Part shown: in pieces, positions 23,641 to 45,300 of the stretch
How positions within the stretch are numbered: position 1 is the first letter of the stretch
How the letters are laid out: the number at the start of each line of letters is the position of its first letter
Origin: Eledone cirrhosa
Lineage: Eukaryota
Direction of reading: 5' to 3'
Assembly: GCA_964016885.1 (NCBI GenBank)
Contig: OZ024741.1
Span: forward strand, 364,684,001 to 364,748,000
Length of the DNA: 64,000 nt
Notes under the pieces: generated by a model
Told to the model about the DNA's origin: nothing
The model's database searches: none
What the model saw: only the letters and a program-made list of their open reading frames with translations
Translations under genes and position numbers: made by a program

Positions 23641-26600
23641 TTACAGATACGTACTCAGAGTAGGTCCATTCACTCGGGCCATTCTTGCTTCTCTCACCCA
23701 TCTTTCAACAAAATGCTGGGAAGAGAGCACTTCCCTCTCTACTCTGATTTTCCTTTTCAAATGAAATTTGAAAAAGTCAATCAGGGTATCACCGAAGAGG
23801 TAAGTGCTCGTCTTCAGCCCTTTCAAATGTGTCCACCATACTATCTCTTTCGCCATGGCCACCAGACAGATAAAAATTACCTGCCCTTCCCGGCTAAAGG
23901 AAGAGGGCGGAGCAATCCTCACGATGGACTCAGATTATAGCCGGATCCGTCCTACACGCGACAGCAGGTGTTCGACATAAACCCACAAGTCAGCAATTTT
24001 CGGACACTGGACGAGTGCGTGCAGGATGGTTTCGTCGCCCTGCGCGCATCTCGGACATTCCCGGCTGACGGCACCTCCATGCCTGTAGAGTTTATCCCGA
24101 ACTGGCAAGGCTCCTCGGTAGCACTGCCAGGCCAGAGATTTCTGGAAGTTGTCCATAGGTCCCGGCCCAAAGTTCTTCCGAAGAGATTGGCTAGTTGATT
24201 TTCGTCGACGCCTAGAGTTTCCCCAAGTACGTCGTCGCTCTTCCCCTCCACTAATCCTCTATAGAAAGCCAAGGTGGAGTTTCCACCGATCACATTGCCC
24301 GATTGGTCGAGGGCTGTGAGCGCCTGAAGACATTCCAGTCTCCAAGCGCTCCCTCTCGGTCTTCGCTTGACCCAGGACTGCAGCTCCATCAAGGAAACGA
24401 GCTGGGGAAATACGTGTCTAGCAAACGGCGACCACACCTGATCACCGTCGAGGAAGAGGTGGAGATGTCGTAGCCTGAGTGGGTGTCTTCGCATCATCAG
24501 CCACGGCATTCCCAGCCCTCTACGGAGCGGGTGTTGACAGCAGATGGACCTCCTGACCATCGGAGCGCGTCCCTTCCACAAAAAGCGAAAGAGCAAACGC
24601 TCCAACGCAGTCAGGCGGGGCTTAGGACAAGGTACGACGGTCAGGCGGTAGCAGGTGACAGACGCGATGTACGCGTTAGCCACCTCCGCTCGACCTTTCA
24701 GGGATAGCTTCCTCTCCGCCCATTTCTGGGTGAGAGAAGCCACCCTGCTCGTCACCTCGTCCCAGTTTTTGTCCGAGCTGCAGGCCCCTGACTTTTCCTA
24801 GTTGATCATTGCTCCTGTCACCGCTTCGTATTCTCTTAGTGTAGTGCCGATCGCCTCGATGTGTTTGGCGTTCGACACCACTACGGTGACATCGTCCGCA
24901 TATGCTGACACGGATCTTCCGCATCCTAGTTCGCGCGGGACGCCCCTCAACGTCTCCAGTCTGTGCAGTAATGGCTCGAGAGTCAATACGTACAAGAGGG
25001 ACGAGAGGGAACATCCTTGGCGGACCGAGCGCATGATGTTGAACGGTTCCGAAAGGTGACCGTTCACTCTCACCACAGAGCAGATATCGCTGTGCATGGC
25101 AGCGATCCAGCCTCTGAAGACGGGCCCAAAGCCAGCCGCCCTCAGGACTGCCGCTAGGTAACGATGGTCGACCCTATCGAAAGCTTTCGACTGATATAAA
25201 TTGATCAAGGACCCACCCGTGCCAGGTTCCCTAGCTACCCTCTCTACGATGTATCGCATGAGGTGGAGGTTGTCGTGGATGGATCTGTCGGGAATGGCGC
25301 ATGTCTGCGCCTCTCCCACCAGACCACCAACGACAAGCGCCAACCTCTTTGCTAGCACCTTGGCCAAAATCTTGAACTCTGTGTTTAGCAGAGTTATGGG
25401 CCTGAAATTATCTATGTTATCCCCCTTGTTCGGATCCTTTCTCAACAGTGCCACCGCTCCTCGGCTCACAGAACTGGGAATTCTCCCGTTCTGTTGCCAG
25501 TTGCAGTAGACGTCCACCAAGAGGCCTCCGAACAAGTCTGGCATCTGTACGTAAAGTTCATAGGGCAGACCATCCAAACCAGGCGATTTACCCCTTGCGC
25601 AGCCAATCATTGCCTCCCGTATTCAGCGGCTGTTATCGGCTTTTCACAACACTCCACCTCAGTGGCCGAGAGCCAAGGCAGTCCGTCGAGGTAGACACTA
25701 AAGTCCATCGCTCGACCCGGCCTACCGCTGCCCCCGAACAGCTGAGCGAAGTGTCGCTGAAAAGCTTCACACATTTGACCGGGATCGAGTAGCATGCGCC
25801 CGTCGTGGTCCACCAAAGACCAGATCGTGGCTTTGTTGCCACGACGCGCCTCCGCCACTGGGGCCCATTGAACGGCTCTCGTCCCCTCGTGTCTGAGAGC
25901 ACGCACCCTAGCTCTGACAACGCAGCCTTCGTGCTTTGCATTGAAGAATTAGTCAAGGGCCAATTTCGCCGCAAGCACGTCGGTCGCGATGCCTTTGCTA
26001 AGCGCCTCGTCTAATTTTCTAACTAGTTCTCCCTCTGCTCTATTTTTCTCTATTGCTAAAGCCTTACTAAACCTAATGGATTCTATTCTAATCGCTCTTT
26101 TCAGAGCAAACCACCACTTGTTGTTGACAATGGCCCCCGTCAACGCCCGCTTAACTAGTTCGCTAATCCGGTCTCTGTAGGGCTTGCGCGCTGGTAAGGA
26201 CGCGTTTAGCTTCCAGTAGCCGGGTCCTCGTCTATGAAGCCTATCTAAGTCAAGCACACAGATCACGAATTTGTGGTCCGTGTAGCTGACTATCTTGAAT
26301 TGTGGACAGCCTATGCTAGACCTATCTATTCCCCTACAAAATACTCTATCTAGATATGATCTGGATGACCCTATACGATTTGTCCAAGTCCACATTGGCA
26401 CATTCGGGAAATCCAATCGGTACCTGTCAGACAGTTCAAAACGCCTGAGCAGGTTGGTGAGGCTCTTGCACCCTCCACCCTATCCGCTAATCCCACACAG
26501 TCCCAGCGTGCATCTAAGATCCCGTTCCAGTCGCCCACTAATACTAAAGAGCCTGACGTTCCAAGAAAGGTCTCCAGACGCCGGAAAAAATCAGGCCGCC

Positions 26601-42328: not shown

Positions 42329-45300
42329 AATGGAAATCGTGCAGCCTGGTCCCCAGGAGACGAAGAGGTGAGTGATTTCTTTTCCTCTTCTTTTAACTTT
42401 TCAGCACCAACATGGCCAATATAAGAATTGGATGTGTGAATGTACGCGGCCTGTGGATGCCCTGAAACAGGGAAAACTCTTAAACGACCTCAGGTCGCAC
42501 AGTATGGATTTAGTAGCCATTTACGAGTCCAGGATCCACAGCGAGCGACAACTGGCTCCCTTCTTCGACAACTTTGAGATTTACGCATCTCTCTGTCAGC
42601 CGGTTGGTGGAGGCGGGGTTGCCGTTTTGCTGCGGAAACACCTGGACCTCGTAACACAGACGGTACATCTGGACCCGGAGGGTCGACTGGTAGTACTAGA
42701 CGTTGACGGGGTAGTAAAGGTGGAACCTTCAGGCTGGTGACCGCATATGCTCCATCCGGGACACCGCGTCCAGACTTCTTCAAACGTCTAGAGACTTTTC
42801 TGGTAACGTCCCGCTCCCTGCTGTTAGTGGGGGACTGGAATAGAATCCTAGAGGCACGTTGAGACTATGTGGGAGCATGTCCCGATAGAGGGGGGGGGGG
42901 TGTGTGTAACAGCCTCAAACAGTTAATCGGCCGATTTGACTTGGTCGATAGATATCGACTAGATTTTCCGACTGTGCCACTGTGGACGTGGATTAATCGT
43001 AGCGGAACATCTAGATCGTACCTAGACAGGGTTCTTGTTAGAAAGAAGGATAGGGACATATTAAGCTGTCCACAAATGTTCATGGTTGACTATTCAGATC
43101 ACAAATTAGTGACCTGCTTAGTCAACCTTGACAAAACCCATAGACAGGGACCCGGCTACTGGAAGCTGAACTTGTCGTTACCGAGATGCAAAGCCTACAG
43201 TAGACGGATTAGCACCTTAGTTAAGCAGCACTTGACGGGGGCCATTGTCAACAACAGTTGGTGGTACTCTCTCAAGAGGGAAGTTAGATTAGACTCGATA
43301 GGTTTTAGTAAAGAATTAGTGTTAGATAGAAATAAGACCGAAAAGGAACTGGTAGATAAAGTAGAAGAGGCACTTAGGAGTGGCAACGTAACCAGCGTGC
43401 TAGCAACGAGAACGGCCTTGGACCAGTTCTTCGACGCAAAGCATGAAGGCTGCGTTGTCAGAAGCAAAATACGTGCTCTGGGAAACGAGGGAGCCAAAGC
43501 TGTTAGCTGGGCCCGAGTGACGGAGGCGAAAAGTGGCAACAGGTTCACGATTCGGTCTTTGAAGGACCAAGAAGGACGCGTGATACTTGAACCGAAGCAA
43601 ATGTGCGCGGCCTTTCAGCGGCACTTTGCTCAACTGTTCGGTCAGGGCGGCGCACCGGGAGGGGCTATGGATTTCGGTTCATACCTCGATGGCCTACCGC
43701 GACTCGCGGACAGCGAGGCGAAGTTCTGCGAAAGGCCAATTTTGGCCGCTGAGATAGGGGACGCGCTGAGCCAATGTGGCAAACGCAAATCTTCAGGTCT
43801 CGACGGTCTACCCTACGAATTTTACGTAGCAATGCCGGACTTATTTTCCGGTCTCCTGGAAGCGGTCTACTGCAACTGGCAGCAGAACGGGAGAATTCCC
43901 AGTTCTGTGACCAAGGGCGTAATCACGTTAGTCAGGAAGGACGAGAACAAGGGGGATGACATAGGCAACTTCCTGCCCATAACTCTGCTCAACACAGAGT
44001 TACAGATTTTGGCCAAGGTGTTGGCAAAGAGGCTGGCGCTTGTCGTCGAAAACCTGGTGGGAGAAGCGCAGACATGTGCAATCCCGACCAGGTCCATACA
44101 CGACAACCTCCACCTCATGCGATACATCATAGAGAGGGTAGGGTGTAAACCCGGCTTCGGTGGGGCCCTGATCAACTTGGATCAGTCTAAGGCTTTCGAT
44201 AGGGTTGACCATCGTTACCTGGATGCGGTGCTCGAGGTGGCAGGCTTCGGTCCCGTGTTCAGGGGCTGGATTGCTGCAATGCACAACAGCAATATCTTCT
44301 CAAGGGTCAAGGTGAACGGCTACCTCTCGGAGCCGTTCCATATCACGCGATCCATCCGATAGGGATGCCCTCTCTCCTCCCTTCTGTACATACTGACTCT
44401 CGAGCCACTACTGCGGAAGTTGGAGCTATTGCAGGGCATCCCTTTGGAACCGGGACTGCGAAAAGCGGCGTCGGCCTACGCCGACGACGTGACAGTAATG
44501 GTGTCGAGCACCTCGCAAATCAGGGAGGTCGGAACATTACTGGAGGAATACGAAAGGTTCACAGGAGTGAAGCTGAACCGGGACAAATCTGTCGGTTTGC
44601 AACTCGGAACGTGGAGAGGCAAACCGATGCCTTCCGATGACGTCGTCGGACGATCGACGGAAGGACCGGTAAAGCTGCTCGGGGTCTGGTTTGGCCCTGA
44701 CCTCCAGGTGGAGAAGAACTCGAACGAGGTGACGGCCAAGGTATTTGCGCTCACCCAGAAGTGGGCCGAGTGCAAACTATTCTTGAAAGGTTGAGCGGAG
44801 GTGGCGAACACTTTTATAGCGTCCGTCATCTACTACCGCTTGACCGTTGTGCCTTATCCAGCCAAAACGCTCACCAAAATGGAGCGCGCGCTCTTCCAAT
44901 TCCTTTGGAAGAAACGGGCTCCTTTGGTGAGAAGATCTATCTGCTGCCAACACCCTTCAAACGGAGGGCTGGGGATGCCGTGGCTGACGATGCGCTCAGG
45001 CTGCGGCAACTCCACGTATTCCTCACCAGACAACCGGTGTGGGCCCCGTTCGATTGGCACATCGAATGTGCTCAGGCGCTCACAGTCCTCTGGAAAACGG
45101 ACCCGGCGATCAGTGGAGACTCCACTTCGACATTCTATAGAGGGTTGGTTCGCAGCAAGTGCGGCGACACGCTCGGAGAAACTCTGGGCGTAGAGGAGGA
45201 CGAACTGGCCAGTCTGTTCGGTAGGACCTTCCGCCCGGGACCAGTGAACAACTTCCAAAAGGACCTGGCCTGGCAGTGCTACCGAGGAGCTCTACCAGTT

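Follow-up and report, generated by a model that had tools for sequence, protein, structure and literature searches.

The window considered here, that is, the whole stretch of DNA analysed, comprises 64,000 nucleotides of Eledone cirrhosa (contig OZ024741.1 of assembly GCA_964016885.1, positions 364,684,001 to 364,748,000, forward strand). It is AT-rich and holds many microsatellites. Two stacks of long interspersed elements (LINEs) lie in it: copies A1–A3 on the minus strand, linked by (ATT)n, and copies B1, B0, B2 and B3 on the plus strand, linked by (TATC)n. The association of the A lineage with (ATT)n and of the B lineage with (CTAT)n is confirmed as real. For each of the seven copies, the repeat on either side is that of its own lineage, with A3 as a borderline case. 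This account describes the copies and their relatives, and weighs how two related lineages could have come to be sorted onto different repeats.

A1 (23391–29340, minus strand) is a decayed full-length copy of 5.95 kb with two open reading frames (ORFs) and (ATT)n at both flanks. Its ORF1 (26960–29128, minus strand, ends approximate) is low in complexity and in broken pieces; one CCHC knuckle is found at 27964, and a Pfam search of this ORF gave zero matches. ORF2 (23641–26952, minus strand), delineated by PF03372, PF00078 and tblastn frames, comprises an APE endonuclease, a linker, a reverse transcriptase (RT) and a C-terminal region, and is damaged: its frame is broken in several places, and it has an internal deletion near 24790. 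The (ATT)n tract upstream of A1 (29341–29387) follows neither an A nor a B 3′ end. On the other side, (ATT)17 (23340–23390) is both the tail of A1 and the 5′ flank of A2 (22339–23339, minus strand), a 5′-truncated copy with 94% identity to A1. Similarly, (ATT)21 (22275–22338) joins A2 to A3 (22115–22273, minus strand), a copy of the 3′ untranslated region (UTR) only, with 85% identity to A1. The end of A3 (22044–22127) reads GATAAA in place of the usual polyadenylation signal, then about three ATT units, then (AT)35; it is the sole A or B copy in contact with another repeat type.

The B stack begins with (TATC)17.5 (39887–39956), again without a preceding A or B 3′ end. B1 (39957–42149, plus strand) is 5′-truncated and starts inside the RT. 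It is followed by a (TATC)n tract (42150–42329) enclosing a B-type 3′-end stub of ~30 bp, B0 (about 42200–42231). B2 (42330–46006, plus strand) is truncated ~80 bp upstream of the ATG of its ORF2 (42412–45774, plus strand), which is interrupted by frame breaks and stops. A short (TATC)n (46007–46024) forms the tail of B2 and the 5′ flank of B3 (46025–47345, plus strand), a 5′-truncated copy with 78–81% identity to B1 and B2 and a (TCTA)14.8 tail (47346–47404). The B copies are 78–83% identical among themselves. Six of the seven A and B copies are 5′-truncated, with intact 3′ ends. A separate upstream ORF1 is present, though broken, in A1; that of B lies outside the window. The window's own copies of both lineages are dead. 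When the B2 region (42330–45775) is compared with reads and contigs, A>G and T>C changes are more frequent than other changes in most runs, and these may be ordinary transitions or editing scars.

ORF2 matches PF03372, PF00078 and PF13966, corresponding to an N-terminal APE domain, RT and a C-terminal zinc region. The best solved-structure match of the family profile is human L1 ORF2p (E 1.8e-111). A and B are APE-type non-long-terminal-repeat retrotransposons of the L1 group. Their membership in the Tx1 clade is likely. A relative with 28% identity (P0069), named 'Transposon TX1 ... protein' by its source, falls into the same broad group in quick trees (both trees in this analysis are of this kind), and preference for a target sequence, a Tx1-clade trait, is seen in seven of seven copies in two stacks and in A tails in reads. 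An NCBIfam search returned nothing above cut-off.

The initial annotation had described the A and B ORF2 as collinear, with long identical peptides, and as belonging to related lineages on two different repeats; both statements are borne out. The lineages are collinear with 70.9% DNA identity over 2161 bp, and ORF2 identity is 60–72%; of the 3′ UTRs, only the last 22 bases are held in common. All the quoted peptides were located, with small variants in B2 and B3. The peptide SIHDNLHLMRYI occurs at 25283–25248 (minus strand) and at 40119–40154 and 44093–44128 (plus strand). LSLKGRAEVAN is exact at 24707–24675 (minus strand), 40803 and 46040, while B2 itself reads LFLKG*AEVAN; MAKE.VWWT.LKGL is found at 23856 and 22806 (minus strand) and 41670 (plus strand), with MVKE in B2 and B3. 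The segment before SYLDR differs exactly as quoted, being WTWTNRIGSSRSYLDR in A (26392–26345, minus strand) and WTWINRSGTSRSYLDR in B (42983–43030, plus strand). The APE domains had been placed at 26952–26200 (minus strand) and 42412–43170 (plus strand). Their catalytic motifs are recognisable at these positions, but neither interval is an open frame: single-frame translation of both hits stops, and the damage amounts to one frame break in A1 and two frame breaks plus one stop in B2. Taking the two intervals as intact domains was therefore rejected. The alignment of the A and B APE domains spans 233 residues, of which 93 differ, and hence the two are not a pair that differs by a few residues.

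The association with repeats extends beyond the window. In two sets of restriction-site-associated DNA sequencing data, there are reads that cross from an A-type 3′ end into (TAA)n, 4,720 in run X9 and 5,218 in run X10; these runs share a species label with run X4, not necessarily with the window, and the reads are not independent molecules. Consensus agreement is 0.85 at a terminal-bin depth of about 7,400–7,900, and the 15% disagreement is room for tails other than (TAA)n. In run X4, 38 contigs pass from an A-type 3′ end into (TAA)n with an agreement of 0.62. For B, one row among the matches listed lies outside the window: 120 reads lead from a B 3′ end through ATCTATCTATCT into a truncated B-like copy, the link being three ATCT units.

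Two further features concern the repeats themselves. Long (TATC)n tracts at 58819–58934 and 62175–62250, within compound AC/TC/TA microsatellites, carry no B copy and are possible empty targets. At 29388–30690 (plus strand), a 5′-truncated LINE with CxxC...HxxxxC and KVLWDF...RPDL motifs starts at the (AAT)n that borders A1, on the opposite strand; we take this copy to be Dong/R4-like.

The segment before SYLDR had been equated with the β-hairpin loop of the L1 endonuclease, and alignment to the L1 structure upholds this. In the family profile, W-T...S-Y-L-D aligns to T192...S202...D205 of human L1 ORF2p, so the anchors T192 and S202 of the βB5–βB6 hairpin correspond. The loops of A (WTNRIGSSR, 26360–26386, minus strand) and B (WINRSGTSR, 42989–43015, plus strand) have nine residues, as in L1. 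A structure model of a database relative (P0195; predicted confidence, pLDDT, 95.5) agrees, with a β-hairpin at the loop and a match to the L1 endonuclease at a TM score of 0.86. Counting without gaps between the anchors, the I/S change between A and B falls at the position of L1 Pro197; the position of L1 His198 is G in both lineages. Three of nine loop residues differ, against 3.6 expected from the 40% divergence of the domain (P=0.48), and 72% of all nine-residue windows of the APE domain differ at three or more positions. The loop as a standout of divergence was rejected on this comparison (3/9 versus 93/233).

Further relatives in the databases were compared by loop. P0198, 84% like A, has the exact A loop, and P0195 has a third version. 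A protein search with the B loop region yielded none of 11 candidates at E≤0.001. In the L1–DNA structure, Pro197 contacts a base, while recognition is mostly of backbone and shape, with few base contacts (PMC8565326). Point mutants of L1 kept the nicking pattern unchanged in the work of Repanas 2007, and the Tx1L loop grafted onto L1 altered the nicking profile without the Tx1L site being gained (PMC1950540). The work on L1 and Tx1L thus lends the loop less weight than the initial annotation had given it.

Relatives with different flanks serve as natural controls. A sister clade (42–45% protein identity; joint support 99–100 in the quick trees) was found as head-to-tail arrays on 16 contigs of one bacterial metagenome-assembled genome record. 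These contigs (CAXXMW01, 2–14 and 16–18; loci L081–L118 and L123–L136) consist largely of arrays of intact 6.4–6.9-kb sister LINEs, up to ~70 kb long; the array DNA in this bacterial bin is probably eukaryotic. Of 42 loci on genome contigs, the 38 array loci were used, with L119–L122 outside the comparison. Nine junction classes are found overall, without poly(A); a run of six A occurs at none of 64 sister 3′ ends. Among 60 distinct sister loops, 51 are identical, seven differ by one residue and two come from a distant family. Downstream of AATAAA, the elements with the 51 identical loops fall into seven junction classes. Different classes have just 0–7 of the first 15 junction bases in common, while the 150 bases before the junction are 81–97% alike among eight close classes, and the endonuclease domains are about 90–96% identical (87–88% for one frameshifted copy). 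Contigs 5 and 17, for instance, have 97% identity over these 150 bases but agree at 3 of 15 junction positions. The junction sequence is kept before three 5′-truncated copies, and also at four array ends before unrelated flank. Taken with the identical loops, this means that the junction stays linked to the 3′ end and changes while the loop stays the same. One array start matches the junction at 8 of 10 bases, another at only 4. Since Rfam gave no matches on four sister loci, the arrays there are not inside a known RNA gene.

The converse case comes from metagenome loci (80 in total, mostly distant and short), of which three were used for the comparison of loop and flank and the other 77 were dropped. 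In L004, L007 and L008, (CT)n lies upstream of a Tx1-like element; the three group together in the tree and, going by the flank, may be Kibi-like. The loop of L004 has 3 of 11 residues in common with those of L007 and L008 and differs at 8. A and B stand apart from these loci in the quick RT tree (FastTree, weak deep nodes). On viral contigs, none of 52 pattern matches was confirmed. Among these relatives, co-variation of loop and target fails in both directions, an outcome that the initial annotation had named as refuting its proposal: the same loop is found on seven junction classes, and different loops are found on the same (CT)n flank.

The reading that we tentatively prefer, with slightly less than even confidence, is that A and B are sorted mainly by pairing of the RNA tail with nicked DNA, the endonuclease cutting a short word common to both repeats. 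The copies end at AATAAA plus about six bases, without poly(A), and continue into their own repeat in a fixed phase (six of the six ends whose signal is intact). Since this signal lies at the very end of the element, the transcript would read past it into the host repeat and carry (AUU)n or (CUAU)n. The word YTAT occurs in both (ATT)n and (CTAT)n but in none of (AT)n, (AC)n and (AG)n; a single nuclease of loose specificity could thus open either repeat by nicking near a top-strand YTAT. Reverse transcription would be primed efficiently only where the nicked strand pairs with the RNA tail; the new copy would again lie before the same repeat, and the lineage would inherit its target. For a switch, a single founder insertion in the other repeat would then suffice, and endonuclease changes may be its consequence and not its cause. 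Annealing of RNA to the target has been described for SART1 and R1Bm (PMC7265360). Tail pairing had been offered in the initial annotation alongside the loop, and this part of the idea gains support.

The window also contains eleven SINE-like (short interspersed element-like) 3′ ends of the form GGCCTTGTGCC...GAAA, at 11060, 11260, 16508, 17818, 30735, 48512, 51410, 53260, 53370, 61318 and 61520. All eleven are followed by TTAT, and at least three have clear 19–21-base duplications in non-repeat DNA. The 11-base word GGCCTTGTGCC also precedes AATAAA in the sister-clade LINEs. If A-type enzymes move these SINEs, the duplications in non-repeat DNA would mean that a short match is sufficient.

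It is conceivable, though rather unlikely, that the target reprogrammes itself, the transcript picking up the first 12–20 downstream bases, which would then guide the following insertion. Lineages on (ATT)n, on (CTAT)n or on any unique 17-mer could in this way be founded with an endonuclease that hardly changes, as in the sister arrays with their one loop and seven junction sequences. Target choice in such an APE-type LINE would be RNA-guided and heritable, and would offer a ready test of endonuclease versus RNA pairing.

One alternative is that there is no targeting at all: each lineage would have made its own repeat tail by slippage, and the stacks would be due to re-insertion nearby or to passive persistence within repeats. 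LINE tails do seed microsatellites (PMC3812793), the read data display tails and not empty sites, and the A3 end adjoins (AT)35. Moreover, the copies form only two independent stacks. With only the two founding insertions counted, the chance of the observed pattern is 0.013 when tracts are weighted by length and 0.25 by plain label swap; with all seven insertions it is 3.5e-7 and 0.008, respectively. Given this small number of stacks, the window by itself suggests targeting without proving it, and its use as stand-alone proof was rejected. Against slippage, however, stand the tracts upstream of the first copies, (ATT)n over 47 bp and (TATC)n over 70 bp: with no earlier A or B 3′ end, they are not tails of A or B elements. 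An unrelated LINE on the opposite strand also abuts the ATT tract, none of 37 perfect (AT)n tracts in the window has an A or B 5′ end, and truncated copies begin exactly at their own repeat, also in the one outside read row. We give an absence of targeting very little probability. Equally improbable is a switch made by a few residues of the βB5–βB6 loop, as the initial annotation had proposed. The loop does map correctly to the L1 hairpin, the I/S change does fall at the Pro197 position, and the close relative P0198 does keep the A loop, its target being outside the comparison. Yet the loop shows no excess of change, G occupies the His198 position in both lineages, loop and junction do not co-vary in relatives, and neither point mutants nor the loop graft transferred specificity in L1 (PMC1950540).

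A more serious competitor, which is quite possible although we hold it with distinctly less than even confidence, is that endonuclease specificity diverged through changes over several DNA-facing surfaces, the loop included, with the tail following and helping in priming. The 93 differences across the domain can easily leave ample room for this. SART1 is redirected to the site of TRAS1 when the whole domain is swapped (work cited in PMC7265360), Tx1L endonuclease is site-specific in vitro, nicking almost only its own site (PMC1950540), and target choice is described as mainly set by the endonuclease (PMC4494074). In addition, all B copies keep (CTAT)n despite their modest mutual identity, which marks the target as a trait that the lineage stably retains. 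Such divergence accords less well with sister subfamilies whose nearly identical domains meet unrelated junctions, with the few base contacts made by the L1 endonuclease (PMC8565326), or with the ATA core common to both repeats. Sorting led by the RNA tail, for its part, has several points to answer beyond this evidence for the endonuclease. Inside the arrays, the bases that would face the loop (+1 to +3) belong to the element's own AATAAA end and are common to all classes; the host of the arrays differs, and the sister loop has 11 residues, not nine. Two of the seven junction classes are each known from a single 3′ end, only 4 bases of the second array start match its junction, and unequal crossing-over may also enlarge arrays. 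YTAT was picked with both targets already in view, the proposed read-through into the repeat is deduced from DNA alone, and the partnership between SINEs and LINEs is an assumption.

Apart from the LINEs, positions 1–9002 are occupied by a 9-kb satellite with a 16-base unit (GACACTGTGTAGATAT), present in about 573 copies and with a strong GC skew.

How APE-type LINEs change their targets is a stated open question (PMC1950540, PMC3812793), and one of relevance to site-specific gene insertion. Two lineages that live in one genome, are 71% identical and occupy different repeats permit swaps of domain, loop and tail. The intact sister arrays (L081–L118) may be the better test system, with near-identical endonucleases and differing junctions. 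These arrays, together with the chance that the target rides on the RNA, are the more surprising lead.

Elements that insert into microsatellites have been described before. One review lists ACAY, AC, TC, TTC and TAA (the last for Dong) as targets and calls the mechanism poorly understood (PMC3812793). For cephalopods, a paper on Octopus vulgaris repeats reports 13 recent L1-Tx1 families, and the available portion of its text does not use the word 'target' (PMC13282606). In a literature search, neither (ATT)n nor (GATA)n came up as a Tx1 target in the accessible parts of the sources; Repbase and Fig. 3 of PMC4494074, which may list AAT or GATA, were outside its scope. The habit of targeting microsatellites is known, and (ATT)n and (CTAT)n as its targets were not met with in print within this search.

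Among the closest parallels are Kibi on (TC)n, Koshi on (TTC)n and crocodilian Tx1 families on (TTCC)n or (TTTC)n (PMC4494074, PMC3812793), so that a natural series of target changes has already been published. Like A and B, these are related APE-type LINE families, each inserting into a different microsatellite. Their targets consist of pyrimidines only, whereas (ATT)n and (CTAT)n do not; a further difference is that A and B reside within one genome. Dong belongs to the R4 clade, has a restriction-like nuclease and is unrelated to the APE-type A lineage. The two nevertheless have the same trinucleotide repeat in common, and the presumed Dong-like copy borders the tract of A1 in the window; insertion of Dong at (TAA)n is on record (PMC3812793). 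With the endonucleases of Tx1L from Xenopus laevis and of human L1, A and B share the fold and the catalytic residues, and with human L1 also the nine-residue hairpin between T192 and S202. They differ from both in having no poly(A) tail and in their microsatellite targets, in place of TTTT/AA or Tx1D. SART1, TRAS1 and R1Bm resemble A and B in being repeat-targeting APE elements. In SART1 and R1Bm, annealing between RNA and target sets the start of reverse transcription, and R1Bm requires downstream target sequence (PMC7265360). These three elements belong to the R1 clade, and their endonuclease has been shown to set the site; for A and B, in contrast, it is the tail that is proposed to sort the lineages.

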